Shown here in pieces: positions 2,030 to 20,923 of a stretch of 24,000 nt of DNA. The notes under the pieces are model-generated. The model searched no databases, was not told the origin of the DNA, and was given only the letters and a program-made list of their open reading frames with translations. Numbering within the stretch: the stretch's first letter is position 1; each line of letters starts with the position of its first letter. This DNA comes from Actinocrinis sp. (lineage in GTDB: Bacteria > Actinomycetota > Actinomycetes > Streptomycetales > Catenulisporaceae), in assembly GCA_035943635.1 (NCBI GenBank), contig DASZBX010000088.1, positions 1-24,000 of the forward strand. The letters are read 5' to 3'. Both the position numbers and the translations under genes were made by a program.

Positions 2030-2107
2030 GGTGACGGCTCCGGTCGGTGATCGAGAGGGGTTCGGGCGGGCCCGGCGGCGTGGCCGGGTGCGCCCTGGAA
2101 CGCGGGT

Positions 2108-2560: not shown

Positions 2561-2580
2561 GCACCGGGCCGGTGGGGACT

Positions 2581-2678
2581 GGCCGCGCCCACTGCTAGGG
2601 CCTGTTCGGAGTTCAGATCAAGGCGAAACGGCTGATCTTGATCTGAACTCCGAACAGGCCCTAGCAGTGGGCGCGGCC
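2581..2678. repeat. Perfect 42-bp inverted repeat with 14-nt spacer; probable terminator hairpin
   Basis: Left arm 2581..2622 (ggccgcgcccactgctagggcctgttcggagttcagatcaag) is the exact reverse complement of right arm 2637..2678. The right arm contains the last codons (GRAHC-stop) of CDS 2661..2864. Confidence 0.9.
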
Positions 2679-2864: not shown

Positions 2865-2996
2865 GGCCGACTCAACGACCTCTTCACCGGGAGGTTACGT
2901 GAGGCAACGTCCGATGTTCACTCGTCTGGAGTACAACCTGCCGGAAACCGGTCCGGCCACGCCGAGCGGGCGCGCCGGGTCAGGGTGAAGCCGCGG

Positions 2997-3221
2997 TCAG
3001 CGCGAGGCCGCGGTCAGGCGCGCGGCCAGTTGCCGGTCGTAGATCTTCCGCTGGACGTTGCCGCGGGAGATGTCGAGCTCGCCGGTGTGCAGGTCGCGCA
3101 CGTGCACCACGACCTCGTTGGTGACCAGGGTGTCGCTGATGCAGGTGGTGTTCGGCAGTACCGCGTCGGCCGGTTTGGCCGCGGCGGCCTGGGCGGGTGT
3201 GCGCCCGGCGGCGAGCGCCAC
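2997..3221 (-). CDS. Small protein of unknown function; frame stays open upstream to 3389 and encodes a Tat-like leader
   Basis: G/C sits at the third codon position in about 70 of 74 codons, so the frame is genuinely coding. The first canonical start is GTG 3221. The same frame upstream reads ...HTQGVSRRGLVRGATGVAAVGAVALAAGRTPAQAAAAKP, i.e. RR, a hydrophobic stretch and AxA. The true 5' end is unresolved. Confidence 0.5.
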   Translation of the reverse strand: MALAAGRTPAQAAAAKPADAVLPNTTCISDTLVTNEVVVHVRDLHTGELDISRGNVQRKIYDRQLAARLTAASR

Positions 3222-3445
3222 CGCGCCGACCGCCGCGACCCCGGTCGCGCCGCGGACCAGCCCGCGTCGCGAAACGCCCTGAGTGTGCGGCTTGCGCCGA
3301 GCCGATTCCCGGTGCCGGCTCTCGTCTTCGCCGTCATTCCCGTCGGCCTCCGCCGTTTCAAGGCGAATCAGGGGTCCGCCATGTACCGGTCAGGGAAATC
3401 ATGGTTCTCCTACGCCGCGGGCACAACCGGGCAATCGCCGAGCGG

Positions 3446-4291
3446 TCACCCGGTCCGCGGCACGTCCAGCAGACCCGGGTCGATCGTCGCCCGGGCGGTC
3501 ACCGACGCCGCCGCGGAGTCGACGATCAGGGCGGCGTCCTGCTCCCGGCCCTTCGGGATCTCGATCGCCGCGCTGTCCGGGCCGTCCCGGTGCGCCATCA
3601 GCCAGTCGTACAGCAGCCAGTCGACCGCGCAGGCGACGGCGAGCGGGTCGGCGTCGGCGGACCCGGCCGAGGTGATCACCGTGCGCAGTGCCTCGCGGTG
3701 CTCTGCCAGCGCGGCGTCCTTGTTGACGCCCGAGCTGTCGAACAGCAGCATCGCGAGCGTGGCCGGGAGCCGCAGGCCAGCCTCGGTGCGCACGATCCAC
3801 CGGCCGCCGCACCACGGCCGCCGCGGGTCGACCCGCTGCATCTGGCCGAAGCCGCCGACCACGCCGAGGGCCGGCGCGTCGAGTTCGCCGTCGAACGGGG
3901 CCGGGCCGAGCAGCCCGAGCGGCAGCCGGGCCCGGATCGCGAACAGCGCCGCGGTGCCGACGATCTGCCCGGCCCGCATGTCCGGCGCCGACCCGAGCAG
4001 CACCGACGCGGCGTGGTACTCGTGGCAGAGCCGGTCCAGCGCGCGGTGCAGCTCGCGCAGACCCTCGCGCTCGGCCGGGCCCGTGGGGCCGCGCCCGCCG
4101 CCGAGCAGCTCACCGAATTGCCCGGCCGCACTGACCAGCGCGTCGTCCAGCGCCTCGAGGTGGGTCGCGGCCAGCCGGTCGGGCTCCTCGTCCCGGCGGA
4201 CCAGGTCCGGCAGGCCGGTCGGGGCGCCGGCGGCGGTGAGCCAGTGGAAGCCGATCTGGCCGTCGGCCTGGGCTATCCGCGGCCGGCTCAC
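3446..4291 (-). CDS. Hypothetical protein, last large gene of the hydrogenase operon
   Basis: Consistently high-GC3 frame. GTG 4291..4289 forms a GTGA overlap with the upstream stop (4288..4290), the coupling pattern seen across the operon. ATG 4348 is an alternative start. I recognise no motif. Confidence 0.6.
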   Translation of the reverse strand: MSRPRIAQADGQIGFHWLTAAGAPTGLPDLVRRDEEPDRLAATHLEALDDALVSAAGQFGELLGGGRGPTGPAEREGLRELHRALDRLCHEYHAASVLLGSAPDMRAGQIVGTAALFAIRARLPLGLLGPAPFDGELDAPALGVVGGFGQMQRVDPRRPWCGGRWIVRTEAGLRLPATLAMLLFDSSGVNKDAALAEHREALRTVITSAGSADADPLAVACAVDWLLYDWLMAHRDGPDSAAIEIPKGREQDAALIVDSAAASVTARATIDPGLLDVPRTG

Positions 4292-5268
4292 CAGGTCCAG
4301 CCCGCTTCCGCCGCACGGTCCGGTCCCGGCCGGCCGGGCGCCGGCCACGGCCGGTCGGCCGGGCGGGCCGACTGCCGGGCCGAGACCCGCGAGCCCATCC
4401 GCGCGGCCGCCAGCCGCAGGTTGGTCGCGTCCAGCTGGCGCAGCGTGCTGGCTTCGAGGGTCTCGGCCTGGTCCGGGCGCAGCCGGTCCGAGAGCCAGTC
4501 CCAGTGCAGGGCGACCTGGTCGCCGGGCGCGACGTCCGGCAGGAAGCTCAGGCCGTCGACCGAGACCCGGACCCGCTCGGGCACCGGATCGCCGAGCCGC
4601 AGCGCGAATCCGTCCCAGGTCAGGCGGCGCGAGGTCAGCTCGACCTGGTCCCCGTCCCGGGCCACCACGGTGCCCCAGCGGATCCGGCAGTTGTCGAGCA
4701 CCCGCAGCGGCTCGTTGACCGGCTCGTCACCGCGCGCGGCAGCGCCCGGGCCGGCGACGCCGTGCGCGGCGAGCAGGCGCGACCACGGGTAGACGCCGAA
4801 CACGTGGAAACAGTGGTTGCCCGCGGCCTCGGCGACCAGCTCCGAGTTCAGATGCGACCAGTAACTGCTCGCCTGCGGCCCGATCAGCGCGAGCAGGTGG
4901 GCGCCGAAGTCGCGCGGGCTGATCTCGGCGCCGACCCCGCCGCCGAGCCAGTAGGCCTCGACGATCCGCCGGTCCAGCGGGTCCGCGATCCCGGTGAGTT
5001 TGGACAGGACCTGGAGGTAGGGCCAGGCGCCGGAGAACCGGCGGGCCACCGCGCGCACGTCGTCGGCCGAGCCGAGCTGCGCGGAGCCGGCCGCGGCCAG
5101 CGCGCCGGTCTCGGCCGGGCCGCAGAACCCGAGCTTGTTCGGCGCGTAGGCGTAGCGGGCGAACATCCACGCGCCGGAGACATCGCCGGAGGTGCCGCCG
5201 GTGCAGTCGCCGATGGTGGCCCCGGCCGGTTGCGCGGGCGTATCCGAACCCTGGGTCGGCGTGCTCAT
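4288..5268 (-). CDS. Conserved-looking hypothetical protein coupled to hypD (YAPNKLGFCGP motif; HypC-like C-terminal segment)
   Basis: ATG 5268..5266 overlaps the hypD stop (ATGA), giving 326 aa. The N-terminal half carries YAYAPNKLGFCGPAE. The C-terminal CRIRWGTVVARDGDQVEL...VAPGDQVALHWDWL echoes the HypC pattern. The part of the track ORF upstream of 5268 lies inside hypD in another frame. Confidence 0.65.
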   Translation of the reverse strand: MSTPTQGSDTPAQPAGATIGDCTGGTSGDVSGAWMFARYAYAPNKLGFCGPAETGALAAAGSAQLGSADDVRAVARRFSGAWPYLQVLSKLTGIADPLDRRIVEAYWLGGGVGAEISPRDFGAHLLALIGPQASSYWSHLNSELVAEAAGNHCFHVFGVYPWSRLLAAHGVAGPGAAARGDEPVNEPLRVLDNCRIRWGTVVARDGDQVELTSRRLTWDGFALRLGDPVPERVRVSVDGLSFLPDVAPGDQVALHWDWLSDRLRPDQAETLEASTLRQLDATNLRLAAARMGSRVSARQSARPADRPWPAPGRPGPDRAAEAGWTW

Positions 5269-6401
5269 CGCGGCTCCGCGGACTGTCCGACCAGCCGGGC
5301 CGCGTCGCGGTGCATCCGGCCGAAGTTGTAGTACGCGGCGCACGCGCCCTCGGCCGACACCATGCACGTGCCGATCGGCGTCTCCGGGGTGCACGCGGTG
5401 CCGAACACCTTGCACTCCCACGGTTTCAGCACGCCCTTGAGCACCTCACCGCACTGACACGCCTTCGGGTCGGCCACCCGCAGGCCGGGCAGGTCGAAGA
5501 GGCGTTCGGCGTCGAAGGCGGCGAACTCCTCCCGCAGCCGCAGCGCGCTCTGCGAGATGAATCCGAGGCCGCGCCACTCGAAGTGCGGGCGCAGCTCGAA
5601 CACCTGGGCCAGCAGGGCGAGCGCGGCCGGGTTGCCCTCCTCGCGCACCACCCTCGAGTATTGATTCTCCACTTCGCAGCGGCCCTCGCGGAGCTGGCGC
5701 AGCAGCATCGCCACCGACGCCAGGATGTCCAGGGGTTCGAACCCTGCGACCACGAGCGGCTTGCCGTACACCTCGGGCACGAACCGGTACGGCCGGTTGC
5801 CGACCACCGTGGAAACGTGGCCGGGCCCGAGGAATCCGGACAACCGCAGGTCGGGCGAGTCCAGGATCGCCTTGAGCGGCGGAACGATCGTGACGTGGTT
5901 GCAGAACACGCTGAAGTTCGACAGTCCGAGCTCGCGGGCGCGCACGAGCGTGACCGCGGTGGACGGCGCGGTGGTCTCAAAGCCGAGGGCGAAGAACACC
6001 ACCCGCCGGTCCGGGTTCTGCGCGGCCAGCCGCAGCGCGTCCAGGGGCGAGTAGAGGAAGCGCACGTCCGCGCCGCGGGCCTTGGCCTCCAGCAGGCTGC
6101 CGCGGCTGCCGGGCACCCGCATCATGTCGCCGAAGCAGGTGAAGATCACGCCGGGCTGCTCGGCCAGCCAGATCGCGTCGTCGACCCGGCCCATCGGGAT
6201 GACGCAGACCGGGCAGCCGGGGCCGTGCACCAGTTCCACGTTCTCCGGCAGCAGGTGTTCGAGCCCGTGCCGGTAGATGGTGTGGGTGTGGCCGCCGCAG
6301 ACCTCCATGAACTTGTGGTGCCCGGTGCCGGCCGTGTCCCTGATCGCCGCGAGCAGAAGCCGGGCCGCGGCCGGGTCGCGGAACTCGTCCACGAATCGCA
6401 T
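5265..6401 (-). CDS. hypD: [NiFe]-hydrogenase maturation protein HypD
   Basis: 378 aa. Motifs: FMEVCGGHTH, GPGCPVCV, FFALGFETTAP, GFLGPGHVS and the C-terminal CxxC...C...C Fe-S motif (ACQCGEVL...WECKVFGTACTPETPIGTCMVSAEGACAAYY). GGGGAGGG RBS upstream. Confidence 0.95.
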   Translation of the reverse strand: MRFVDEFRDPAAARLLLAAIRDTAGTGHHKFMEVCGGHTHTIYRHGLEHLLPENVELVHGPGCPVCVIPMGRVDDAIWLAEQPGVIFTCFGDMMRVPGSRGSLLEAKARGADVRFLYSPLDALRLAAQNPDRRVVFFALGFETTAPSTAVTLVRARELGLSNFSVFCNHVTIVPPLKAILDSPDLRLSGFLGPGHVSTVVGNRPYRFVPEVYGKPLVVAGFEPLDILASVAMLLRQLREGRCEVENQYSRVVREEGNPAALALLAQVFELRPHFEWRGLGFISQSALRLREEFAAFDAERLFDLPGLRVADPKACQCGEVLKGVLKPWECKVFGTACTPETPIGTCMVSAEGACAAYYNFGRMHRDAARLVGQSAEPR

Positions 6402-6435
6402 GAACCCTCCCCATCAGTGTGTACGAGCCCTGCGA

Positions 6436-6708
6436 TCACAGGACCGAGGAGGTGTCGAAGGCCTCGATCTCGGACCGGTACGCCTCCCCCATCTTCTGCA
6501 CCGCGGCCAGGGTCAGCATCGCCTCGTCCTCGTCGATCCGGGCCATCGCGAACCCGACGTGCACCAGCACCCAGTCCTGCGGCCGGACCTGTTCTCGTTC
6601 CAGCAGCCGGATGCTGATCGTGCGCTGCACCCCGCCGACGTCGACCTTGGCCAGACAGTTCGCGGCGTCCACGATCTCGACGATCTGCCCCGGAATCCCC
6701 AGGCACAT
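6436..6708 (-). CDS. hypC: Hydrogenase assembly chaperone HypC/HupF family (copy 2)
   Basis: 90 aa. N-terminal MCLGIPGQIVEI and ...DWVLVHVGFAMARIDEDEA. GAGGAGAGGGA RBS upstream. Confidence 0.9.
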   Translation of the reverse strand: MCLGIPGQIVEIVDAANCLAKVDVGGVQRTISIRLLEREQVRPQDWVLVHVGFAMARIDEDEAMLTLAAVQKMGEAYRSEIEAFDTSSVL

Positions 6709-6737
6709 GTCCCTCTCCTCTTCTTCACGGTGACGGC

Positions 6738-6756
6738 GGCGCCCGGGCCGGGCGCC
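6738..6756 (-). other. Intra-operon GC hairpin (8-bp stem, 3-nt loop) abutting the hypE stop
   Basis: GGCGCCCG (6738..6745) pairs with CGGGCGCC (6749..6756). It lies in the 48-nt hypE-hypC2 gap. Confidence 0.4.
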
Positions 6757-7896
6757 TCAGCAGATCCGCGGCAGCGGGTCGCCGACCAGCAGGTCCACGA
6801 TCCGGGTGCCGCCGAACAGGGTGCGCAGCACCACGGTCCCGGCCGGGTCGGCGGCGATCTCGCCGACCACGGCGGCCTGCGCGCCGAGCGGGTGCCCGCG
6901 CAGCGCGGCCAGCCCGGCCTCGGTCTCGCCGGCGGCGAGCACGGCCAGGAACTTGCCCTCGTTGGCCACGTACAGCGGGTCGATGCCGAGCAGTTCGCAG
7001 GCCCCGTTGACCGCCGGGCGGACCGGCAGCCGCCACTCGTCCAGGACCACGCACAGGCCGGCGGCCCGGGCCAGTTCGTTGCAGACCGTGCCGACGCCGC
7101 CGCGGGTCGGGTCGCGCAGCCAGCGGGTCGAGGGGGCCGCGGCGAGCAGGACCTCGGCCAGGTCGCCGAGCGGGGCCGTGTCCGAGCGGATGTCGGCCTC
7201 GATCGCGAGGTCGCCGCGGGCCAGCATCACGGCCATCCCGTGGTCGCCCATCGTCCCGGTCAGCACCAGGCGGTCGCCCGGGCGCACCGAGGCGGCCGAG
7301 AGCCGGCGCCCGTCCGGGATCACGCCCACGCCGGCGGTCGTGATGAACAGTCCGTCGGCGGCGCCGGTCGGTACGACCTTGGTGTCGCCGGTGACGATCT
7401 GCACCCCGGCGGCCTCGGCGGCCTCGGCCATGTCGGCCACGATCGCACGCAGTCCGCTGATCGGGAAGCCTTCTTCGAGCACGAACGCGGCCGACAGCCA
7501 GGCCGGGCGGGCGCCGGACACGGCCAGGTCGTTGACCGTGCCGTGCACCGCGAGGTGGCCGATCGAGCCGCCGGGGAAGCGCAGCGGCTGGACCACGAAC
7601 GCGTCGGTGCTGAAGGCGAGCCGGTCGCCGCCGGGCAGGGCCAGGACGGCGCCGTCGCCGAGCGCCTCGAGGTGTTCGTTGCGGAAGGCCTCGACGAAGA
7701 CCGAGTCGACCAGCGCCGCGGACGACTTCCCGCCGGCGCCGTGGGCCAGGGTGACGATCTCGTCCAGCAGCCGCGGCCGGCGGCGGCGGAAGGCCTCGAT
7801 CCGTTCGATCACCTCGCCCTCGGCGAAGGACGGGCCGGGGCCGGACCGACTGTGCTCGGCCGGGTCGTGCGCGGCGAGGCCGGAGTAAGAGGTCAT
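6757..7896 (-). CDS. hypE: Hydrogenase maturation protein HypE (carbamoyl dehydratase)
   Basis: ATG 7896..7894 overlaps the upstream stop (ATGA), giving 379 aa. AIR-synthase-like motifs (LAHGAGGK, TDAFVV, GTVNDLAVSGA, TGDTKVV) and the diagnostic C-terminal PRIC. Confidence 0.93.
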   Translation of the reverse strand: MTSYSGLAAHDPAEHSRSGPGPSFAEGEVIERIEAFRRRRPRLLDEIVTLAHGAGGKSSAALVDSVFVEAFRNEHLEALGDGAVLALPGGDRLAFSTDAFVVQPLRFPGGSIGHLAVHGTVNDLAVSGARPAWLSAAFVLEEGFPISGLRAIVADMAEAAEAAGVQIVTGDTKVVPTGAADGLFITTAGVGVIPDGRRLSAASVRPGDRLVLTGTMGDHGMAVMLARGDLAIEADIRSDTAPLGDLAEVLLAAAPSTRWLRDPTRGGVGTVCNELARAAGLCVVLDEWRLPVRPAVNGACELLGIDPLYVANEGKFLAVLAAGETEAGLAALRGHPLGAQAAVVGEIAADPAGTVVLRTLFGGTRIVDLLVGDPLPRIC

Positions 7897-8552
7897 CGTT
7901 GCTCCGCCGGCTGAGCCAATTGTTCGTGGACTGATTCCCAGAGCCGGTATCCGAGCAGGGCTTGGGCCTCCTGGATCCGGTGCACGCTCTGCGAGCGCAC
8001 GACGAGGCACACGTCGACGTCCGGGCTCCCGGCGAACTCGCCGCCGTCGTAGCCCGCGAACCCGACCGTGTACAGGCCGCGCGCCCGCGCCTCCCGGAAC
8101 GCGGCGGCCAGGTCGCGCGAACTGCCGCTGGTGGACAGGGCGATCGCGACGTCCGTGGGCCGGGCCCGGGCGATCAGCTGCCGGGCGAAGACCAGGTCGA
8201 AGCCGACGTCGTTGCCCAGCGCGGTCAGGATCGCCTGGTCGGCGGCCAGGGACCAGGCCGGCAGCGGGCGGGCCGGGGATCCGGGCGGCGGGACGGCGAA
8301 CAGCCCGGCCAGGGTGGCGGCGTCGGTGCAGCTGCCACCGTTGCCGAAAGTGAAGATCCGTCCGCCCGCGGACAGCCGGCGGGCGATCTCGGCGGCGGCC
8401 GTCCGCAGCTGCGGCGCGCACGCTTCGAGGGTGCTGCGGCGTAGCTGCGCGCTCTCCCGGGACTTGGCCCGGGCCGAGGCGGCCAGGTCGGTCAGCAGGG
8501 AGCCCTGGTCTCGTTCCGTGGCGTCCAGGAACGGGTAGAGGAAGCCGGTCAC
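7893..8552 (-). CDS. SIS-domain protein, GmhA (phosphoheptose isomerase)-like
   Basis: 219 aa. GTG start forms a GTGA overlap with the upstream stop. SIS hallmarks: RIFTFGNGGSCTDA, LTALGNDVGFDLVFARQ, DVAIALSTSGSSRD, VHRIQEAQALLGY. Confidence 0.8.
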   Translation of the reverse strand: MTGFLYPFLDATERDQGSLLTDLAASARAKSRESAQLRRSTLEACAPQLRTAAAEIARRLSAGGRIFTFGNGGSCTDAATLAGLFAVPPPGSPARPLPAWSLAADQAILTALGNDVGFDLVFARQLIARARPTDVAIALSTSGSSRDLAAAFREARARGLYTVGFAGYDGGEFAGSPDVDVCLVVRSQSVHRIQEAQALLGYRLWESVHEQLAQPAEQR

Positions 8553-9370
8553 GGCCGGCCCTCCTCGGCCAGGCGGCTGATCGCCATCCCGGCGTGCACG
8601 AGCACCAGGTCGCCTCCGCGGACCGGTTCGACCAGCGCCGTGGAGACGCGTTCTTCGTAGCCTGCGACGAGGACGACGGCCTCGCCGCCGGGACCCACCG
8701 TGACCACCTCGCCGAGCCTGCCCTCGTCGCTACAGGTGACGCAGACCTCCTCGTCGCAGTCGGCCGCGACGGCCTGGCCCAGCAGTCCCGGGTGTTCGAA
8801 GCAGACGTGGGTCAGTTCCCAGAGCAGGTGGTAGAGCAGCACGAACCCGCCGGCGGCCGGCCGGCCCGGGTCCGGATCGTCAAGCCAGAGCACGTGATCG
8901 GCCGCGCCCGCCGGGGGCCGGGGGCCGTTGCCGATCCACAGGGCGCTCGCGCCCCAGGCCGGGGCGCGGCGGATCACCGCGCCCGCCTGCGGGTCGTCGG
9001 CCGCCGCGACGGCGATGATCACGTCGCCGGGCCGGACCGAGAGCCGGGCCGCGCCGACCACGGCCGGGCCGGTCAGCGCGACGGCCGGCAGGGCCTTCGC
9101 GCCGACCACGACCGGATGGACGAACTCGACCGCGATGTGCTGGGCGTGCGGCTCCCAGGCCGGGGCCAGGCACCAGAGCGTGGCCCCGGCGGCGAACCGG
9201 CGCGCGAGACTCAGCGCGGCCGTGGCCAGATCGGCGGCCAGATCCTCGCCGATCTCGCCTTCGGGCGCGGTGGCCGCCGGGTCTTGCGGCTCCGGAGCCG
9301 CTTCGGGCTCGTTCCCGCCGAGGGCATCAGTATTCGTATCAACCATGACGACACCTATCGCGGATATCAT
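8549..9370 (-). CDS. Degenerate SIS-like domain fused to a C-terminal HypC-like domain
   Basis: ATG 9370..9368 overlaps the hypC1 stop (ATGA), giving 273 aa; ATG 9346 is an alternative start. The middle region (AQHIAVEFVHPVVVGAKALPAVALTG...GDVIIAVAAAD...LYHLLWELTHV) follows SIS topology but lacks the GNGGS and STSG motifs. The C-terminus CVTCSDEGRLGEVVTV...GGDLVLVHAGMAISRL parallels HypC. Confidence 0.6.
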   Translation of the reverse strand: MISAIGVVMVDTNTDALGGNEPEAAPEPQDPAATAPEGEIGEDLAADLATAALSLARRFAAGATLWCLAPAWEPHAQHIAVEFVHPVVVGAKALPAVALTGPAVVGAARLSVRPGDVIIAVAAADDPQAGAVIRRAPAWGASALWIGNGPRPPAGAADHVLWLDDPDPGRPAAGGFVLLYHLLWELTHVCFEHPGLLGQAVAADCDEEVCVTCSDEGRLGEVVTVGPGGEAVVLVAGYEERVSTALVEPVRGGDLVLVHAGMAISRLAEEGRP

Positions 9371-9729
9371 CGGGCGCCGCCGCCTCGCTGAGCCGGGACG
9401 GCCCCGACCGCGGGCCCGCTTGCAGACGTCGCAGGGCTCAAATTTGCCGCACGGTCGGCCGCCGCCGGAATCTCCGCGGCCTGGCCGAAGACCCCGTACT
9501 CCGCCATCGTCGCAATGGTCTCCAACGCCGACGCCTCCTCGATCCTGGTCAGCGCGAAGCCCGCGTGCACGATCGTGTAGTCGCCCACCTGCAGCTCCGG
9601 CAGGTAGGCCAGGCAGATCCGCCGGGACTCCACGGCCGTTCCGGCCTGCCGGAACTCGACCCGGGCCATCCGCGCGCCGCTCTCCTCGTCCCAGACCTCG
9701 ACGATCTTGCCGGGTATGCCCAGACACAT
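9367..9729 (-). CDS. hypC: Hydrogenase assembly chaperone HypC/HupF family (copy 1, with about 40-aa C-terminal tail)
   Basis: 120 aa. MCLGIPGKIVEV...VGDYTIVHAGFALTRIEE. The start lies 1 nt after the hypF stop. Confidence 0.9.
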   Translation of the reverse strand: MCLGIPGKIVEVWDEESGARMARVEFRQAGTAVESRRICLAYLPELQVGDYTIVHAGFALTRIEEASALETIATMAEYGVFGQAAEIPAAADRAANLSPATSASGPAVGAVPAQRGGGAR

Positions 9730-9730
9730 G

Positions 9731-13341: not shown

Positions 13342-14312
13342 GTGCCCACCCGGATCCAGACGTCCCCGGCTTCGACCCGCAGCGGCAGCTGTTCCAGGTG
13401 CGCTCCGGGGGCGCTCAGGCACTCGCCGGACAGCGCGTCGTAGCAGAATCCGTGCCAGGGGCAGGTCAACGTGCCGTTGGTTGCGTCGAGCAGCGCGTTG
13501 TCCAGCGGCATCCCCTCGTGCGCGCACGCGTTTCCGTACGCCGTGAGCCGGTTGCCGATGTTCACGACGATGACCCCCGCGGCCAGCGCCGATCTCGATC
13601 TCGTCCCCGGTGCCGCGCCCAGCGACAGTGTGCTGATCTTCCCCTCGGCCAACTCCCCGACCGCCGCGGCCTTCACCCATCCGTCGGCCGCGAGACCGTC
13701 CGGGTCCGCCGCCCCGGGCCCGATCCGCAGTGCGGACAAGGGAATCAGGGCCGGTGACGGTTCGCCGGGCAGCACTTCGACCGTCGTGATCCCCGGAACG
13801 CCGCCGACCAGCGCCTCTTCGACCAGGTGGCGAAGCGTCACCGAGGACATGGAGCACCCGTTGCAGGCGCCCTCCAGCCGGACATACGCGACCGGGCCCT
13901 CGATCCGGACCAGGGCGACGTCGCCGCCGTGCGACTGCAGCTGCGGCCGGACCTGAGTCAGAACCCTGGTCGCGAGCGTGACCGGATCCGGGCGGACGAT
14001 CCCGTGCAGCGACAACAGCAGATGCACGGTCGGATCATCGACGAGCTCGTACAACGCCGGACGGGTCGCCTCCTCGGACCGCAGCCGCCGGACGATCGTC
14101 ACCAACCCGGCCCGGTGCACGGCCTCCACGGCCGCCTTCAGCTCCTCGGCGACCGCCCGGGCCGGGCCGTCCAGCGCGGCCAGCGCCTTGACCGCGTCGT
14201 CCACCCGCATCGCCAGCCGCTCGAACGACGGTTCCGGCTCGGCCGGCTCCGGCTCGGGCCGCGCCGCGGGGGGGCGGTCCCGCGCCCGGCCGTCCCGGAT
14301 ATCAGCAGTCAT
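13338..14312 (-). CDS. hucE: NifU-like + Rieske [2Fe-2S] fusion protein (HucE/HhyE-like putative hydrogenase electron-transfer/assembly protein)
   Basis: ATG 14312..14310 lies 2 nt after the upstream stop, giving 324 aa. Nfu-type domain ([28 protein letters not shown]). C-terminal Rieske motif CAHEGMPL-x15-CPWHGFCYD. Confidence 0.8.
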
Positions 14313-14314
14313 GC

Positions 14315-15709
14315 TCACTCCGCATCCTGGTCCTGGTTCCTGACCAGCACCTGCTGGCGGGCGATCTCGTCGAGCAGGCCGCGCACCATCCGGACCGAGT
14401 CGCCGTCGGAGAACTCCTCGAACAGGAACCGGGCCTCGTGCAGCTTGGCCCTCGCGTGGGCGAACTGGCCCAGGTGCGCCAGCACGTTGCCCTGGTTGGC
14501 CAGCACCCGCGCGCGGCCGATCGGATCGGAGTGCCGCCCGCGGACCTGGAGCACGGCCTCGTACAGCTCCAGCGCTTCGACCAGATTGTCGGCCTGGTGC
14601 CGGGACGGCGTGTAGACAAGGGAATTGGCGAGATTCAGCTGAGTGCTCGCCCACCGCTCCGGATGGGTCTGCGGGGTGTACACCTTCAGCGCGTGACGCA
14701 GCGACTGCACCGCGACGCCGAGCCGGAGCTGATCGGAAGCCTGCGTCATCGGCATGGTCAGGTAGGCAGCGGCGAGGTTGGCGTGGGCGGCGGCCCACAG
14801 TTCCGGCGCCTGCTCGGCCGTGATCAGCTGGAGCACCGAGTGGTAGTGCGGCACCGCGAGCGCCAGCTGCTGCGGCTGCTGTGCGGACAGTTCGTGCAAC
14901 GCCCCGGCCAGGCCCAGGTGCAGCTCGGCCCGGCTGACCCGCAGGTCCTCGGCCCCGCTGAGCGCCAGCAGGGCCTGCTCGTAGAGCACCGCAGGGCCCG
15001 GATTCGCCGGGCCGCTGCTCTCGCCCAGGCCGAACACCTCCTGGCTGATCGACGCGGCCGCCCCCAGCATCAGTCCGGCCAGCGGCGGCGCCACCGGGCG
15101 CGCGGTCCGGGCCGCCTGGTGCAGCAGCCGCAGCGCCTCGGTCGGCTCGCCGGCGGCCAGCTCGTGCGTGGCCTGCGCGGACAACAGCAGCGCGGCGATC
15201 TCCCCCTCGGCCGAGCCCGGCTCGGGCGGCGTCACGGTCCGGCCGAGCACGAAGGACACCAGGTCGACCAAGGGCCCGAACTCGCCCAGATCCGCGCGCA
15301 GCTGCTGTAGTTCTCCTTCACCATCCTCAGAATCCTCAGCTCCGGCGCCGCCGAGGCCGTCCGGGTCCAGCACGAACCGGTTGTACCGGCTGACCGGATC
15401 GGACCCGGCCGCGGCCAACGCTGCCAGCGCGCCCCCCCGGTCCCCGGCCAACGCCAACTCGTGCGCCCGCAGCCGTTCCGGCCACGGATCCGGCGCCCGG
15501 CCCGCCAACAACGACACCCGCGCGGCCTCGGTGTCCGCACCGCCCGGGATCAGCAGGTACCCGGCCGGCAGCGGGAACGTGCCCAAAGGCTGCGGCCGCA
15601 CCGGCGCCGCCCACGCCGACGGGCCCGCCTGCGCAGTCCGCTCCGGCTGCGAGCTCGACGGCGACCCGTCGATCATGATCGTCACCGGACCGGCCAGCAG
15701 ATCAGACAT
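14315..15709 (-). CDS. TPR-like helical-repeat protein
   Basis: 464 aa. The C-terminal two thirds are Ala/Leu-rich helical-pair repeats (e.g. ELWAAAHANLAAAYL, RWASTQLNLANSLVY, GRARVLANQGNVLAHLGQFAHARAKLHEA). ATG 15709 overlaps the upstream gene by 8 nt. Confidence 0.6.
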   Translation of the reverse strand: MSDLLAGPVTIMIDGSPSSSQPERTAQAGPSAWAAPVRPQPLGTFPLPAGYLLIPGGADTEAARVSLLAGRAPDPWPERLRAHELALAGDRGGALAALAAAGSDPVSRYNRFVLDPDGLGGAGAEDSEDGEGELQQLRADLGEFGPLVDLVSFVLGRTVTPPEPGSAEGEIAALLLSAQATHELAAGEPTEALRLLHQAARTARPVAPPLAGLMLGAAASISQEVFGLGESSGPANPGPAVLYEQALLALSGAEDLRVSRAELHLGLAGALHELSAQQPQQLALAVPHYHSVLQLITAEQAPELWAAAHANLAAAYLTMPMTQASDQLRLGVAVQSLRHALKVYTPQTHPERWASTQLNLANSLVYTPSRHQADNLVEALELYEAVLQVRGRHSDPIGRARVLANQGNVLAHLGQFAHARAKLHEARFLFEEFSDGDSVRMVRGLLDEIARQQVLVRNQDQDAE

Positions 15710-16325
15710 CGAATCGTCCGCGCAGCTCGCGCTCGGCCGCCCGCTTGATCAACCTGGCGCTGACCTCGGCCCGGGACTTCGTGTGGAAACTGTCGATCCG
15801 GTGCCGGATCACGCCGTCGGGGAAGATCACCAGGACGTCCACCGCCCACCGGCCGCGCTCCGACTCGACCACGGTCTCCACGCCATACGCGCGACGCACA
15901 CCGGGAACGGACGAGCCGGCGGCCACATCAGAGAACGAGGGAACGGCCGGAGCAGGCGGCCCGGCCCACTCCTCCCGCCCCGACTTCGTCCCGGCCTCGC
16001 CCAGCAGATCCCGTTCTATCTCCGCGCACGTACTCGACAGCAGCCCCGCGATCGACGCCGGCACCGGATGCAGCCCGCTCCCACTCTGCTGCTCGCCGTC
16101 CGTCACAGCTGTGCCGCGTTCTGCATCGCCCGAGCCGTCCTTCCCACTGGTCTGCGCCTCCACATCCGTATCGGCCTCCACGTCAGCGTCCGCATACGAT
16201 TCCACCGAACCGGCCAGCTCTCCCAGCCCGCACTCGAGCACATCAGGATCCTGAAGAATCCGGTCGGCTCCCGCTCCGGTTCCGGCTCCGGCTGCGCCGC
16301 CGTGCTCCTCATACTTCGCGATCAC
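15702..16325 (-). CDS. Acidic hypothetical protein
   Basis: GTG 16325..16323 forms a GTGA overlap with the protease stop, giving 207 aa. Low-complexity acidic N-terminal half (ADADVEADTDVEAQTSGKDGSGDAE) and a structured-looking C-terminus (RWAVDVLVIFPDGVIRHRIDSFHTKSRAEVSARLIKRAAE). The long track ORF 15702..17084 upstream of 16325 is out-of-frame overlap with the protease gene. Confidence 0.5.
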   Translation of the reverse strand: MIAKYEEHGGAAGAGTGAGADRILQDPDVLECGLGELAGSVESYADADVEADTDVEAQTSGKDGSGDAERGTAVTDGEQQSGSGLHPVPASIAGLLSSTCAEIERDLLGEAGTKSGREEWAGPPAPAVPSFSDVAAGSSVPGVRRAYGVETVVESERGRWAVDVLVIFPDGVIRHRIDSFHTKSRAEVSARLIKRAAERELRGRFDV

Positions 16326-17362
16326 GGTTCCAGCTCCAGTTCTATCCTCAACGCGCCCTGATCCCCGTCCCAAGCCGCCCGGCGCTCGCCGACCGGAACC
16401 TCGTCCTTGAGCACCTCCCGGATCAACACCGCCCGGTCGCCCGCCGGATTGCGCTGCTTGAGCAACAGCCCGCCGCTCTGCGGGCCGATCAGCGGCAGCA
16501 GCCACAGCTGCTCGTCGCGCAGCAGCGCGACCGCCGCGTCCGAGGGGAAGCGCCGGGCGGCCAGCCGCGCGTCCAGGCGCAGATATCCGTCCTCGGTGAA
16601 CTCCACCTTCGGCCCGTCCGCCCCCGCATCGGCGGTCGGCCGCAGCGGGTACAGGAACTCCCACTCGACCAGCCCGATCACCTGCTCCATGGCCGCCGCG
16701 ACGGGCGCGCTCAGCTCCGCGCCGAACCCGACCCCGGCCGCCTCGATCAGGAACACCGTGATGTCCTCGGGGCACTCCCCGGCCAAGGCCCAGCGCGCGA
16801 ACGAGATCGCGTGGTCCCAGCGGAAGGAGTGCGTGTGCAGGCCCTGCAGCGGCGGCAGTTCGGCGAATTCGCTGCCCGGCACCCGGTAAACCGTTCCCGG
16901 CTCGGCGCCGGTCGCGCTCGCGTCGACGATCACCACGCGCTTGGCCCCGCGCATCTGGAAGGCCACGTCCATCCCGGCCGTCCCGCCGTCCACCAGCCGC
17001 GCGCCCTCGGGCACACCGCGATTCCACAGGTGCCGCACCAGGATCGGGCCCACGCCGTCGTCGCCGCGCAGCAGGTTCCCGCACCCGATCACCAGGACCT
17101 CGCAGCCGGGGCCGCGCAGATCTGCCAGGTCACTCAGCCCACTGTCACCGAGCACGTCCGCGACGTCCGCACCGTCGGCCGGCTGCGTGGACTCGGCCCC
17201 GCCGCGTCCGACGCACACCGGCTCGGCCGCCGGCCGGTTCACGCCCTGCGCCCAGCCCGCGTCCGCGCCCGCGGACTCGCCGTGCGGGCCGCCTCGGCCG
17301 ACGACGTGACCGTCCTGCGGGCCGCCGTGCCCCACACCTGTCACCGGTTCCTGCAACGCCAT
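16322..17362 (-). CDS. hupD: Hydrogenase maturation endopeptidase (HupD/HyaD family) with N- and C-terminal extensions
   Basis: 346 aa. Core motifs VLVIGCGNLLRGDDGVGP, VDGGTAG, VIVDA and HTHSF. About 85 aa precede the GCGN motif, and that stretch has high GC3, so it is probably translated. About 110 aa follow the core. GAGAGGTGA RBS before ATG 17362. Confidence 0.85.
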   Translation of the reverse strand: MALQEPVTGVGHGGPQDGHVVGRGGPHGESAGADAGWAQGVNRPAAEPVCVGRGGAESTQPADGADVADVLGDSGLSDLADLRGPGCEVLVIGCGNLLRGDDGVGPILVRHLWNRGVPEGARLVDGGTAGMDVAFQMRGAKRVVIVDASATGAEPGTVYRVPGSEFAELPPLQGLHTHSFRWDHAISFARWALAGECPEDITVFLIEAAGVGFGAELSAPVAAAMEQVIGLVEWEFLYPLRPTADAGADGPKVEFTEDGYLRLDARLAARRFPSDAAVALLRDEQLWLLPLIGPQSGGLLLKQRNPAGDRAVLIREVLKDEVPVGERRAAWDGDQGALRIELELEP

Positions 17363-17390
17363 CGTTCACCTCTCTCGGTCGCCCGGGAAA

Positions 17391-18998
17391 TCAGACCATT
17401 CCGTTGATCACGAATCTGCTGAGCTCGCGCCCGTTCCGGCCGTCGTAGGCGTGCACCGTGCACACCAGGCAGGAATCGAAGCTACGGGCCACGTGGCCGA
17501 GCTCGACCGGGTCCTGCGGATCGGTCACCGGCGACCCGATCAGCGCGCTCTCGATCGGCCCGACCATCCCGGCCCCGTCCCGCGGGCCGATGTTCCACGC
17601 GGTCGGCGTGACCACCTGGTAGTTCTTGATCTTGTTGTCCTCGATCACGATCCAGTCCGCCAGCGACCCGCGCACCGCCTCGGTCGCGCCGAAGCCGCGG
17701 CCCTCGGCGTACTCGGTCGGCTTGGTGTAGAAGCTCTCGTGCAGATCGATCTGGTCGAGCCACTCGCGCACCCACGTGTACATCTTCGGCGCCTCATGCA
17801 TCCGGGCCAGCTGCCGGACCAGCACGCTCGGCCCGATCCGCGCCATCACGTCCACGAACAGCGGGTCAAAGTCCTGATGCGGCGCCGCGCCGGGCGCCCC
17901 GGCCGCCATCCGCCGCGCCAACGGCCCGGCCTCCAGCGGGACCTGGCCCAGGCCCGGCACGTCGTACCGCGGCGACTTGGCCCAGCTGTACTTCTCCTGC
18001 CGGCGCCCGATCTCCGGGTCGATCGGCTTCGTCTCGCCGTCGAACGGGTGCAGCGAACCGGTCCCCTCGTAGAACGAGTGCGTGACGTCCTCGGTCACCC
18101 GGGCCTGGTCGAACTCGTGCCACCGGCCGTCCGCGTAGATCCCCGAGCGGCTGATCAGGGCACTGTTGCGGCCCTCGATGGTCGGCCGGTCGTACATCGA
18201 CGGCTCGAAATACGTGCCGGTGGCCAGGAAATCGCCGACCCCCGCGCCGTACTTGTCCAGCCCGATGTCCAGGCAGTACCGGATGAAGAACCCGCAGTCG
18301 CTCTCGTGCTGCGACTCGTTCTCGTCCACCCAGGCCAGGACGTCCTCCCAGGTCCGGTTCGCCAACCACCGCTCGATCGAACAGCCGAGCCACTGCTTCT
18401 CCAGCCAGTTGTCCTTCCAGTGCTCGAAGATCGCGATCGCGCGGGTCACGTCCGACAGGGTCGGCGCGCACATCACCCCGCCCGGCACCATGAAGCTCGA
18501 ATGCGGCCACTGCCCGCCGAAGATCGCGTACACCTCCACCGGTTTCGCCGAATACAGCACGCCCGGCTGGTAGCTCGTGCCCACATAGGGCGCGAACCGC
18601 CGCACGGCCTCGGCGTACAGCGGCGAGCGCGCATAGTTCTTGTTGGTGAAGTCGATCGCGAACAGCGCGTAGAAGTACCGCGGAATGCTCTGCAGCGTCT
18701 CCGCAGCCTGACAGATGTTGCGCACGAGCGTCGCGTTCGGCGGCACGTGCGTCTTCCAGGCGGTGTCCAACGCGTACGCGGACTTGTACAGGTGGCTGCC
18801 GCCGCAGATCCCGCAGATCCGCGGGCACACGATCAACCCGGCCTGCGGGTCCTTGCCCTGCAGGATGATCTCGAAGCCGCGGAACATCGCCGCCTCGGTC
18901 CAGGCCGAGGTCACGACCCCGTCCTCGACGGTCACCCGGACGTCCAGGTCGCCTTCGACCCGGCCCAGGGGGCTGACGAACAGATCAAGCGCTGTCAT
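17391..18998 (-). CDS. hucL: [NiFe]-hydrogenase large subunit, group 2a-like
   Basis: 535 aa. N-terminal SPLGRVEGDLDVRV and the Ni-binding motif PRICGICGGSH. C-terminal motif FDSCLVCTVH is followed by a 19-aa extension (AYDGRNGRELSRFVINGMV), the usual endopeptidase substrate. GAGAGGA RBS. Confidence 0.95.
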   Translation of the reverse strand: MTALDLFVSPLGRVEGDLDVRVTVEDGVVTSAWTEAAMFRGFEIILQGKDPQAGLIVCPRICGICGGSHLYKSAYALDTAWKTHVPPNATLVRNICQAAETLQSIPRYFYALFAIDFTNKNYARSPLYAEAVRRFAPYVGTSYQPGVLYSAKPVEVYAIFGGQWPHSSFMVPGGVMCAPTLSDVTRAIAIFEHWKDNWLEKQWLGCSIERWLANRTWEDVLAWVDENESQHESDCGFFIRYCLDIGLDKYGAGVGDFLATGTYFEPSMYDRPTIEGRNSALISRSGIYADGRWHEFDQARVTEDVTHSFYEGTGSLHPFDGETKPIDPEIGRRQEKYSWAKSPRYDVPGLGQVPLEAGPLARRMAAGAPGAAPHQDFDPLFVDVMARIGPSVLVRQLARMHEAPKMYTWVREWLDQIDLHESFYTKPTEYAEGRGFGATEAVRGSLADWIVIEDNKIKNYQVVTPTAWNIGPRDGAGMVGPIESALIGSPVTDPQDPVELGHVARSFDSCLVCTVHAYDGRNGRELSRFVINGMV

Positions 18999-19040
18999 GG
19001 AACTGATCCTCTCAGGACGGCCGCGATCCCGCCGGGCGAT

Positions 19041-20012
19041 TCAGACAACGAACATGTCTTCTTTGGACCACTGCGGCGCGGCGATCCGCGCCGCGGCCGC
19101 GTGCGCCATGTAGGTCAGGTGGTCGTTGCCCTCCGGCACCTCCTTCGGGATCATGCCGCTGACCTTCTGGGTCTTGAACACCGTGCCCGGGGTCAGGTCG
19201 AAGAACGGGAACTCCGGTTCGGTGCAGCCCAGGCACGGCATCCCGGCCCGGGTCTTGGAGGACTGCCGGTTCCACAGGATCCGGTTGCACGGCGAGTGCG
19301 TCATCGGCCCCCGGCAGCCGAACTCGTAGAACAGGCACCCGGTCCGCGTCCCCTCGCCGAACGACACCGTCGACTGCTTGTACTCGAAGAACTGCACCCG
19401 CGTGCAGCCGGTCTGGGTGAACGACTTGAAGAACGTCTCCGGCCGGTGCAGCTCGTCCAGGGTGATGTCCGCCGCCCGCCCGGTGGCCAGCGCCACCAGG
19501 ATCTGGGTGATCCAGTCCGGATGCGCCGGACAGCCCGGGATGTTGATCACCGGCAGCCCGGACCGGGACCGGAAGTCCGGCCCGAGATACCCGCCCTTCT
19601 CCCGCTTGTGGAACTGCAGCCCGGTCGACCCGGACGGATTCGGCGCCGTGGCCGGAATCCCGCCCCAGCACGCGCAGTCCCCGATCGCCACCACGATCTG
19701 CGCCTGCGCGGCCAGGTCGGTCACCCAGTCCTTCATCGGCCGGTCGGCGAACATGTCCATCCGCCCGCTCCCGTTCGGCCCCTCGATCACGGTCCCCTCG
19801 AACACGAAGATGTCCAGCGGCCGGGCCCCCCGGGCACAGTCCTGGAACAGTTTCTGCGCGTTCTTGCCCAGTTCCAGGCCCAAAGAAGGGTGCCAGAGCA
19901 GGTCGAGACCGAAGTCGACTATCAGGTCGACCACGTTCGGCTCGTCCGCGTTCAGGAACGACATCGTGTTCCCACTGCAAGCACCGCCCTGGAACCACAG
20001 GACAGACGCCAT
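19041..20012 (-). CDS. hucS: [NiFe]-hydrogenase small subunit without Tat signal, group 2a-like
   Basis: Start chosen at ATG 20012..20010, preceded by GAGAGGAG, giving 323 aa that begin directly at MASVLWFQGGACSGN. The ORF-track N-terminal extension is not a convincing Tat signal and ignores that RBS. Fe-S ligand motifs: GACSGN, GDCACWGG, GCPAHPDW, TQTGC, GCLFYEFGCRGP, SPCN, PCLGC. Confidence 0.93.
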   Translation of the reverse strand: MASVLWFQGGACSGNTMSFLNADEPNVVDLIVDFGLDLLWHPSLGLELGKNAQKLFQDCARGARPLDIFVFEGTVIEGPNGSGRMDMFADRPMKDWVTDLAAQAQIVVAIGDCACWGGIPATAPNPSGSTGLQFHKREKGGYLGPDFRSRSGLPVINIPGCPAHPDWITQILVALATGRAADITLDELHRPETFFKSFTQTGCTRVQFFEYKQSTVSFGEGTRTGCLFYEFGCRGPMTHSPCNRILWNRQSSKTRAGMPCLGCTEPEFPFFDLTPGTVFKTQKVSGMIPKEVPEGNDHLTYMAHAAAARIAAPQWSKEDMFVV

Positions 20013-20129
20013 GGAATACTCCTCTCGATTGCCCGCCGACCAGGTCGGTGTGAATGGGGGAAGAACCACGCCCGCACGCCTCCGACCAGCAAGGAGGCAG
20101 CGGGCGAACAAACCGGCGACCGGAACCGG

Positions 20130-20672
20130 TCAGGGCGGACCCGGCCGCCGGCCCAGCACCCGGGCCACCTCCACGAGATGACCCAGGCCCCGGGAGACCT
20201 CCTCGTCCCTCAGCAGCCGCAACAGCCCCAGCAGGCCGGTCGGGGCCCCGCCGGGCCGCTGCGCCGCCCGCTGCTCGCCCTCGGCCAGCGCCGCGGCCAG
20301 CCGGGACAGCGCCCGGACCGTGCCCGGATCGGCCAGCGGGCCGCCGAGCAGCTCGCCCAGCGCGGGCGTGGCGGCGACCACGGGCCCTGACAGGCTGGCC
20401 GCGCTGGCGGCGAGTCCGCGCAGGTCGATCCCGGCCAACGGACCGTTGCCGAGCCCGCCCGCCGCGCCGCGCAACTCGGAGGCGCCCTCGGCCAGCGAGT
20501 CGGCGATCACCTCGCCGCGGCGGAAGAATCCGTCCAGCGCGGTCACCAGGAACACGATCAGGTCGGCGTTGTCGAGCAACACATTGAGAGCCTCGACGGT
20601 ACGCGGCTGCTCAAGGCGCGCGAGCAGTTCCCCGACCGGGGTCGGGGCGAGGAGCCGATCGTTCGCGGTCAC
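20130..20672 (-). CDS. DUF1641-like helical protein, candidate HucM-type third subunit/scaffold
   Basis: GTG 20672..20670 has a perfect AGGAGG 7 nt upstream, giving 180 aa; ATG 20726 is the longer alternative. Ala/Leu-rich helical protein (TVEALNVLLDNADLIVFLVTALDGFFRRGE ... LLGLLRLLRDEEVSRGLGHLVEVARVLG). It is the first gene of the hydrogenase operon. Confidence 0.55.
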   Translation of the reverse strand: MTANDRLLAPTPVGELLARLEQPRTVEALNVLLDNADLIVFLVTALDGFFRRGEVIADSLAEGASELRGAAGGLGNGPLAGIDLRGLAASAASLSGPVVAATPALGELLGGPLADPGTVRALSRLAAALAEGEQRAAQRPGGAPTGLLGLLRLLRDEEVSRGLGHLVEVARVLGRRPGPP

Positions 20673-20923
20673 CCGGAAACCTCCTGTGACATCTCGATCA
20701 CTGTATGCAGTCCCAAGCCTAGACACACTCGGCTGGATCGCCTATCGTCTTCACGCATCGACTATCAGGAATGCGCAGACTTTATGAGCTGGAAGCGCAA
20801 GACTTCGCCAGGGTTCGATGGAGGAGTGGGAACTGATCCAACGTCAGTCGGCGGCCGCTGACCGCCTGCCCCACTTCGCCCTCTCATCCTCCCCTGTTCC
20901 CGGCGGATCGAATCGGAGCCCGT
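20673..20923. promoter_or_regulatory. Divergent promoter region between the hydrogenase operon and the AraC-family gene, with two pairs of direct repeats
   Basis: Locally lower-GC 250-nt intergenic region. ATCGcCTATC (20737..20746) and ATCGaCTATC (20757..20766) are 20 nt apart. GCGCAGACTT (20773..20782) and GCGCAAGACTT (20795..20805) are 22 nt apart. Confidence 0.4.

Follow-up and report, generated by a model that had tools for sequence, protein, structure and literature searches.

Does the long gene run on one contig of an Actinocrinis genome encode a complete hydrogenase system of the Huc type, and how would such a system be expressed and controlled? The stretch of DNA analysed here, hereafter the window, comprises 24,000 nucleotides (nt) of contig DASZBX010000088.1 in the metagenome-assembled genome (MAG) GCA_035943635.1 of Actinocrinis sp., with a G+C content of 72%. 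Exact protein matches assign its products to a 49.8-kb contig of this MAG, which is classified in Catenulisporales, Actinospicaceae. An initial annotation, made from the sequence alone, had described in it a complete Huc-like (group 2a) [NiFe]-hydrogenase supercluster of 17 or 18 genes on the minus strand, extending from 2997 to 20726. In the global hydrogen cycle, the oxidation of atmospheric H2 by Huc-type enzymes acts as a major sink, and it is under development for air-powered fuel cells. We hold it to be very probable that the window contains a complete actinobacterial Huc locus that works and is expressed in the manner proposed below, and we put forward a neighbouring AraC-family gene and a conserved DNA site as candidates for its control.

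The hydrogenase and its class

Gene identities were established with Pfam and NCBIfam and by comparison with solved structures, the references for the Huc enzyme of Mycobacterium smegmatis being 7UUS and 7UUR (also 7UTD). Three structural genes open the locus:

20130–20672, minus strand: hucM, stalk or scaffold subunit of 180 amino acids (aa) (Pfam DUF1641; match to PDB 7uus_Q)
19041–20012, minus strand: hucS, small subunit of 323 aa with no twin-arginine translocation (Tat) signal (91.6% identical to M. smegmatis HucS)
17391–18998, minus strand: hucL, [NiFe] large subunit of 535 aa (83.1% identical to M. smegmatis HucL)

The product of hucM, which is encoded directly upstream of hucS, matches the chain 7uus_Q, named 'Huc membrane associated subunit', over residues 21–194 (E=1.2e-25). 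HucS begins with MASVLWFQGG, aligned to residue 1–2 of M. smegmatis HucS, the start of the mature protein, and its cysteines occupy the same positions as those of M. smegmatis HucS in 11 of 11 cases. It would carry three [3Fe-4S] clusters, the cluster type being taken from the M. smegmatis enzyme (PMC10017518). The residues that hold menaquinone in HucS (Lys212, Tyr229 and Tyr301) and His166 of HucL, all defined in that same study (PMC10017518), are conserved at the same positions, the D-configuration of His166 being a property that cannot be read from sequence. HucL retains both CxxC pairs, C62/C65 (RICGICGGSH) and C510/C513 (DSCLVCTVH), and ends in a 19-aa C-terminal tail after His516.

Scored against solved hydrogenases, the large subunit reaches 1041 bits with HucL (7UUS), 233 with the next-best structure and 122 with the group 1h structure 5AA5. 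The assertion that the enzyme does not belong to the membrane-bound group 1 is thus upheld, with no group 1 structure exceeding 233 bits. All of the sequence-level features that define the Huc type of group 2a are present. Judged from the identities of HucL and HucS, the cysteines, and the presence of HucM and of HucE (listed below), the locus is correctly described as Huc-like, as encoding a group 2a [NiFe]-hydrogenase, and as complete, including the protease and hypABCDEF. In the public annotation of the MAG the small subunit is labelled 'hypothetical protein' (HEV2637786.1) despite its 92% identity to HucS.

Accessory and maturation genes

The remaining genes of the run, in order of transcription from the fourth to the seventeenth, and the two maturation genes on the opposite strand are as follows:

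16322–17362, minus strand: maturation endopeptidase (Pfam HycI; NCBIfam TIGR00072, 6e-40)
15702–16325, minus strand: small Huc-specific protein of 207 aa (alignment with relatives of 83–90 aa)
14315–15709, minus strand: Huc-specific TPR-like protein of 464 aa (weak TPR_12 match)
13338–14312, minus strand: hucE, NifU-like and Rieske protein (Pfam NifU 1.7e-22, Rieske 7e-14)
12142–13341, minus strand: NHL-repeat beta-propeller protein (Pfam NHL 1e-28; 69% identical to the M. smegmatis orthologue)
9731–12142, minus strand: hypF, carbamoyltransferase (five of five HypF Pfam domains)
9367–9729, minus strand: hypC, first copy, beginning MCLGIPGK (Pfam HupF_HypC 1e-21)
8549–9370, minus strand: 273-aa protein with a C-terminal HypC-like domain (Pfam HupF_HypC, residues 220–270)
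7893–8552, minus strand: SIS-domain, GmhA-like protein (Pfam SIS_2 8e-15)
6757–7896, minus strand: hypE (Pfam AIRS and AIRS_C; named HypE by the Prokaryotic Genome Annotation Pipeline)
6436–6708, minus strand: hypC, second copy (Pfam HupF_HypC 7e-26)
5265–6401, minus strand: hypD (Pfam HypD 1.4e-154)
4288–5268, minus strand: DUF6390 protein (Pfam DUF6390 9e-101)
3446–4291, minus strand: conserved 281-aa protein, last gene (63.5% identical to the M. smegmatis gene that follows NHL)
22045–22383, plus strand: hypA, nickel metallochaperone (Pfam HypA 3e-27)
22395–23213, plus strand: hypB, His-rich GTPase for nickel insertion (NCBIfam TIGR00073, 2e-73)

The maturation set is therefore complete, comprising HypA, HypB, two copies of HypC, HypD, HypE, HypF and a HycI-type endopeptidase for which HucL offers a candidate cleavable tail. 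The placement of hypA and hypB on the opposite strand, as initially described, was confirmed; the best NCBIfam match of hypA, TIGR00100, scores 72.7 bits, below its cut-off of 88.1, and hypB starts at an ATG preceded by the ribosome-binding site GGAGGAGAAGAG.

Among the accessory products, HucE carries the motifs CNGC and CAH-x17-CPWH and is 59% identical to M. smegmatis HucE. The orthologues of the TPR-like protein (416–435 aa) occupy the same position in all Huc loci, and the small protein has no match in Pfam or NCBIfam. The SIS-domain protein matches the NCBIfam phosphoheptose isomerase models below their cut-offs. For the 281-aa protein 779 homologues were found, all of them unnamed and without Pfam domains; its AlphaFold2 model has a predicted local distance difference test score (pLDDT) of 90.9 and a predicted template modelling score of 0.91, and a Foldseek search with that model returned no fold match in the PDB (best E=0.11).

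Two of the proteins are enlarged. The endopeptidase of the window ends in a C-terminal domain of about 110 aa that all Huc-linked endopeptidases share, and its N-terminal extension is lineage-specific; the protein has 346 aa, as against 256–295 aa elsewhere, and carries an in-frame low-complexity insertion of about 60 aa at its N-terminus (17123–17362). An in-frame low-complexity insertion of about 115 aa (15951–16325) likewise lengthens the small protein. Neither insertion occurs in any of the relatives. We also considered that the GTGA junction at 16322 might be an artefact of an over-extended open reading frame (ORF), and rejected this because the N-terminal residues of the small protein align with the starts of its homologues and the insertion is in frame.

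Gene junctions and boundaries of the cluster

A frame plot of G+C by codon position (GC3) shows that coding frames on the minus strand continue without interruption between about 3446 and about 20700, beyond which plus-strand genes begin. The head-to-tail arrangement of 17 genes on the minus strand, from 3446 to 20672, is confirmed, and all 20 of the 20 genes evaluated are intact and free of frameshifts.

For the analysis of the junctions, the minus strand was printed around every stop codon and the starts were then fixed. Every junction listed in the initial annotation is present in the printed strand: ATGA overlaps at 13338, 9367, 7893 and 5265, GTGA overlaps at 16322, 8549 and 4288, a TGATG overlap of 1 nt at 12142, an overlap of 8 nt at 15702–15709, and gaps of 2 nt (14313–14314) and 1 nt (9730). 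Larger spacers precede only hucS (117 nt), hucL (42 nt), the protease gene (28 nt), the second hypC (48 nt) and hypD (34 nt), and a strong Shine-Dalgarno sequence accompanies each of them. Related loci whose genes were called independently are packed equally tightly, down to the overlap of 8 nt. Because independent calls in relatives repeat them, we regard the overlaps as a conserved property and not as an artefact of start-codon choice or of selecting the longest ORF.

Both of the boundaries first proposed had to be moved. At the downstream end, an ORF at 2997–3221 (or up to 3389) had been entertained as an eighteenth gene. It lies 224 nt past the last conserved gene and has no homologue by tblastn in any syntenic locus, and the count of 17 was for this reason retained over that of 18, with the cluster ending at 3446. 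The region holds two further small features, namely a Tat-like SRRGLV motif in the translated upstream extension of this ORF (2997–3389), upstream of its first canonical start (GTG 3221), and a 14-codon ORF at about 3357–3401 with a GGAG ribosome-binding site. At the upstream end, a hucM start at GTG 20726 was discarded, as it falls inside the conserved promoter, whose -10-like hexamer TAGGCT occupies 20721–20716. The true start of hucM is GTG 20672, which stands nine bases behind AGGAGG and lines up with the hucM starts of related loci; the revised protein of 180 aa compares with 177–178 aa in the closest loci, and the 54 nt between 20726 and 20672 are promoter.

Comparison with related loci

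Related loci were collected by a genome scan with HypF, by tblastn of all window proteins, and from contigs with homologues of HucE, HucL, AraC and HucS. The Mycobacteriaceae genomes with Huc clusters that were compared include GCA_000243415.3, GCA_001675225.1 and Mycolicibacterium sp. P9-64. The M. smegmatis locus was located by an exact match to HucS as it appears in the solved structure.

The whole 17-gene order, with its spacing, recurs in a soil metagenome locus (L083), in a Pseudonocardia-like locus (L084), in two Mycobacteriaceae loci (L081 and L082) and in Mycolicibacterium sp. P9-64 (L004), and is seen in part in four other loci (L085–L088). Pseudonocardia, mycobacterial and soil metagenome Huc clusters thus share with the window the gene order, the overlap pattern and a divergent araC gene. 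Closest of all is L083 (JGI 3300033179), with 88% identity in HucL and 83% in the AraC protein, in which the divergent genes are likewise araC-hypA-hypB; this order is also conserved in L085, L087 and L088, and L086 has araC-hypA before the contig ends. The first copy of hypC is present in L083 and L084 and, unlike in the window, is absent from the mycobacterial copies. Proteases of 256–295 aa and small proteins of 83–90 aa in these clusters contrast with the 346 and 207 aa of the window, and the flanking genes differ from one cluster to another. In L081 and L082 (positions 1–3050) the araC-huc unit lies directly beside genes for the large and small subunits of RuBisCO, a CbbX-like AAA protein and a LysR regulator, a neighbourhood that hints at a tie between Huc and CO2 fixation in those loci.

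With the M. smegmatis huc genes (MSMEG_2261–2270) the window shares the divergent AraC gene and then genes 1–8 in the same order, together with the cluster cysteines, the menaquinone-site residues, His166 and the promoter repeats described below. The M. smegmatis locus reads araC, hucM, hucS, hucL, protease, small protein, TPR-like protein, hucE and NHL, and continues with a counterpart of the window's last gene, with hypB and hypA (opposite strand) and with hypF. NHL and that counterpart are thus immediate neighbours there, whereas in the window an eight-gene maturation block, from hypF to the DUF6390 gene, separates the two; hypA and hypB, which are downstream and on the opposite strand in M. 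smegmatis, follow araC in the window. M. smegmatis possesses a classical hypF-C-D-E set, and its HypF is only 49.5% identical to that of the window; the genes flanking huc there are hypB, hypA, hypF, hypC, hypD and hypE (MSMEG_2271–2276; PMC2799521). The resemblance to the mycobacterial huc locus noted in the initial annotation consequently holds for genes 1–8 and for the last gene, and fails for the maturation half.

That half has its closest counterparts elsewhere. The block hypF-hypC-HypC-like-SIS-hypE-hypC-hypD-DUF6390 (4288–12142) is of the type linked to the group 1h enzyme, Hhy, in most mycobacteria, and it is most similar to mycobacterial loci whose large subunit is only 24–30% identical to HucL. 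In M. smegmatis, Hhy is flanked by a set running from hypF to hypE, hypC and hypD (PMC2799521). The Hhy-linked modules share with the window the order hypF ... HypC-like, SIS, hypE, hypC, hypD, DUF6390, and with 63–66% identity in HypF and 84–88% in HypD they are as close to the window as the mycobacterial Huc-linked copies, or closer. Hhy clusters differ in having a group 1h large subunit (1077 bits to 5AA5 in L001) and an HhyE-type protein, and in lacking HucM, the small protein, the TPR-like protein and NHL. By tblastn of the window proteins against the loci, the small, TPR-like and NHL proteins are found only with Huc; the 273-aa HypC-like fusion, the SIS-domain protein, the DUF6390 protein and the 281-aa protein accompany both Huc and Hhy. 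The maturation module, as read from these comparisons, is common to Huc and Hhy clusters, and the affinities of the window block and of the modules in L001–L012 and L045 suggest that it has been exchanged between them.

An AraC-family gene and a candidate operator

Upstream of hucM, and divergent from it, lies a regulator gene that shares its control region with huc:

20924–21982, plus strand: AraC/XylS-family regulator gene, candidate huc regulator (Pfam AraC_binding_2 and HTH_18)
20742–20799, minus strand: candidate operator with the direct repeats TGCGCATTCCTGATAG (20777–20762) and TGCGTGAAGACGATAG (20757–20742) (phylogenetic footprint)
20716–20721, minus strand: -10-like hexamer TAGGCT (TANNNT) of the huc promoter (fixed spacing; the transcription start is predicted)

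An orthologue of the regulator gene is adjacent and divergent in all 12 of the protein-selected Huc loci that cover the region, including that of M. smegmatis, where the gene (8071–9132 of L130) lies beside MSMEG_2261 and the protein is 61% identical. The protein has two domains, a cupin-like N-terminal ligand-binding domain and a C-terminal part with two helix-turn-helix motifs. Its AlphaFold2 model (pLDDT 85) finds its best PDB folds in CuxR, Rns and ToxT, which are full-length ligand-responsive activators of the AraC type, and its best NCBIfam resemblance, below the cut-off, is to AndR.

The intergenic region between hucM and araC is mostly unalignable between families, with the exception of a block of about 45 bp that contains 21 invariant columns over ten loci. 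Within it, tandem TGCG-N7-GAYAG repeats occur in 11 of 11 loci that had not been chosen by the motif, M. smegmatis included (9256–9291 of its locus, L130). The repeats of the window stand in a 20-bp register, with a weaker TGCGC upstream at 20799. In the same 11 loci the TANNNT hexamer follows the second repeat at a fixed distance of 20–21 nt, so that the proximal repeat would abut or overlap the -35 element. The divergent araC gene and the tandem TGCG-N7-GATAG repeats are jointly conserved in five actinobacterial families, at each of the huc promoters inspected.

Of 88 loci, seven contain the composite motif, each a single time and in every case at the huc promoter. When a stricter version was matched exactly against the metagenome collection, 41 sites were returned, 40 of which are flanked by the araC orthologue and/or hucM-hucS-hucL, with araC and huc on both sides wherever the contig is long enough. 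The one site that is not next to araC or huc (L093, 63–100) lies on a 1.5-kb contig upstream of a gene for a membrane protein with a HIT-like C-terminus, and could represent a second member of the regulon, a chimera or a chance occurrence.

In class II promoters of the AraC/XylS type, such as AraC at I1-I2, XylS at Pm and RhaS, bipartite half-sites are arranged as direct repeats about two helical turns apart, the proximal half-site abuts or overlaps the -35 element, and the regulator combines a cupin-like N-terminus with two C-terminal helix-turn-helix motifs. The window resembles these systems in the arrangement of half-sites, in their position relative to the -35 element and in the domains of the regulator, and differs from them in its TGCG-N7-GATAG sequence, which is specific to the Huc-linked AraC family. 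From this combination we favour, by a modest degree, the interpretation that the AraC-family protein is a conserved direct regulator of huc across Actinomycetota, M. smegmatis included, probably an activator, which would act through the two TGCG-N7-GATAG repeats about 21 nt upstream of the -10 element and whose cupin-like domain would bind a metabolic signal. We present the protein and its candidate operator as a lead, not as a result. According to a 2026 study in which the araC gene goes unmentioned, the factors that directly control huc transcription in M. smegmatis are still to be identified (PMC13098282), and our literature search found no paper linking AraC with Huc or with group 2a hydrogenases.

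Expression of the cluster and alternative explanations

The tight packing of the 17 genes suits co-expression from a promoter at about 20710–20800, and they would form one transcript. The geometry of the junctions is consistent with genes that are transcribed together and with accessory genes coupled in translation, most of which overlap by 1–8 nt; the structural genes are set apart by spacers and carry strong ribosome-binding sites of their own. The further proposal that coupling imposes a fixed stoichiometry on the whole set was overstated, for purified M. smegmatis Huc contains only HucS, HucL and HucM, at 8:8:4 (PMC10017518), the structural genes possess independent spacers and strong ribosome-binding sites, and coupling ties the translation of adjacent genes together but does not render it equimolar.

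Several observations weigh against this account of the locus. In M. smegmatis the structural and maturation operons are described as separate (PMC6883350; bioRxiv 10.1101/769216), and hucS and hucL are induced 5.4-fold there as against 1.5–2-fold for the hyp genes (PMC2799521, Table 2). A scan for sigma-70 promoters and terminators over 2400–22100 returned one promoter-like and three terminator-like elements, no more than shuffled sequences did, with a consensus that is uninformative for a high-GC actinobacterium, and so speaks neither for nor against promoters within the cluster. The low-complexity extensions of the protease and the small protein are both weakly coding, at 0.28–0.31 bits per codon compared with 0.64–0.77 in the conserved genes. 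The placement in group 2a rests on 83% identity to the type enzyme and not on a tree with groups 2b–2f, which would be unlikely to change the class at such a level of identity. Finally, the organism is known only as a MAG, and the expression, activity and affinity of the enzyme are predicted properties.

The M. smegmatis data bear most directly on the possibility that the genes are transcribed as at least two units, with structural and accessory genes separated from maturation genes, or with re-initiation before the second hypC and hypD, and that internal promoters set different levels. The gaps without overlap that precede the second hypC, hypD and hucS would accommodate such starts. Little space for promoters is left between the protease gene and hypE, or between hypD and the last gene, where neighbours overlap or stand no more than 2 nt apart; an alignment of the hucM-hucS spacer over ten loci, inspected for an internal promoter or RNA element, showed conservation of the ribosome-binding site alone. 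A whole-window Rfam scan detected no RNA family. As the hyp genes of M. smegmatis are arranged differently, its data are not directly transferable, and we regard a divided cluster as a serious possibility, if the less probable one.

Much less room is left for the alternatives that concern the enzyme itself. Instead of scavenging H2 from the atmosphere, a Huc-type hydrogenase might recycle H2 that the cell itself produces or that is raised locally, in the course of mixotrophic or autotrophic growth. In favour of such a role, the earliest descriptions of group 2a concern cyanobacteria, where it recycles the H2 made by nitrogenase (PMC7784904), and the same cluster adjoins RuBisCO genes in two Mycobacteriaceae loci; we consider this unlikely here, where nitrogenase and RuBisCO genes are absent from the window and where the residues associated with high-affinity catalysis and with coupling to menaquinone are identical to those of the enzyme that oxidises atmospheric H2. 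The unusual low-complexity insertions, in a sequence drawn from a metagenome bin, could point to a decaying cluster or to a non-functional, chimeric artefact of assembly, but the insertions are in frame, the genes and the catalytic and cluster ligands are intact, and the gene order is that of isolate genomes, which renders this explanation highly improbable. Least probable of all is an enzyme of another [NiFe] class (group 1h/Hhy, group 1f or the H2-sensing group 2b) that resembles Huc superficially. The similarity of the hyp module to those accompanying mycobacterial group 1h enzymes speaks for it, yet the bit scores of the large subunit, the 92% identity of the small subunit to HucS, the presence of HucM and HucE and the synteny with M. 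smegmatis huc leave it effectively refuted on the genes at hand.

Proposed mechanism

In the mechanism that we consider best supported for the Huc locus, HucS and HucL would form a cytosolic, oxygen-insensitive group 2a [NiFe]-hydrogenase. H2 would be oxidised at the NiFe site and its electrons passed through three [3Fe-4S] clusters to menaquinone, which in its reduced form would feed the aerobic respiratory chain. A HucM tetramer would serve as a stalk around which eight HucSL units assemble, with menaquinone reaching the distal cluster through the hydrophobic tube of that tetramer. The high affinity, the oligomeric architecture and the reduction of menaquinone are carried over from work on M. 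smegmatis, the electron path and the assembly specifically from PMC10017518, and the oxidation of H2 at sub-atmospheric concentrations in an O2-insensitive manner is accordingly a predicted property of this enzyme.

HucE and the small, TPR-like and NHL proteins would act as accessory factors, HucE being needed for Huc activity in M. smegmatis (PMC6883350). Assembly of the Ni-Fe(CN)2CO centre, its insertion and the removal of the 19-residue HucL tail would fall to HypA–F and the endopeptidase. The divergent araC-hypA-hypB unit would share its control region with huc, whose promoter the AraC-type protein would probably activate from the tandem repeat overlapping the -35 element. In this scheme, the identities of the genes, their junctions and synteny, the conservation of residues and that of the promoter footprint come directly from the present comparison; the single transcript and activation by AraC are predictions that follow from it.

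Neighbouring features in the window

Beyond the last gene of the cluster, a perfect inverted repeat of 42 bp with a loop of 14 nt occupies 2581–2678, and may be a very strong bidirectional terminator or the remnant of a mobile element. The 3' end of a small signal-peptide ORF (2661–2864), with its last 18 nt and its stop codon, falls within one of the arms. A plus-strand ORF at 2392–2598 was considered as a paralogue of this small ORF and dismissed, as the two have only the palindromic 3' end in common. Further downstream on the same strand are tatA-like (2108–2308) and tatB-like (1706–2029) genes and two genes for Ferritin_2 ferritin-like proteins with twin-arginine signals (646–1452 and 2–868, the latter cut by the window edge). 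At the other end, a gene for an HxlR-family regulator (23169–23540, minus strand) runs towards hypB and shares 45 nt with the 3' end of that gene.

Implications for Huc systems in Actinomycetota

The Huc locus itself is of a known kind, one that lets soil actinobacteria live on trace H2 in air, and its layout is already present in public genomes. The window adds Catenulisporales, through Actinocrinis, to the lineages with a complete and intact Huc system; no Catenulisporales name was found in the accessible portion of a 2020 survey of group 2a hosts. It also reveals the 17-gene layout, together with its control region, as a unit conserved across at least five actinobacterial families, and the separation of Huc-specific genes (small, TPR-like and NHL proteins) from those that occur with both Huc and Hhy (HypC-like, SIS, DUF6390 and 281-aa proteins) narrows the candidates for Huc-specific maturation.

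To a specialist the cluster would be unsurprising. The one new lead is a possible huc switch, formed by the conserved AraC regulator gene beside the cluster and the DNA site that goes with it; gene and operator are the part worth an experiment, as they bear on what directly controls huc. If the proposal is true, the AraC-family protein would supply the direct huc regulator that has been missing in M. smegmatis (PMC13098282).

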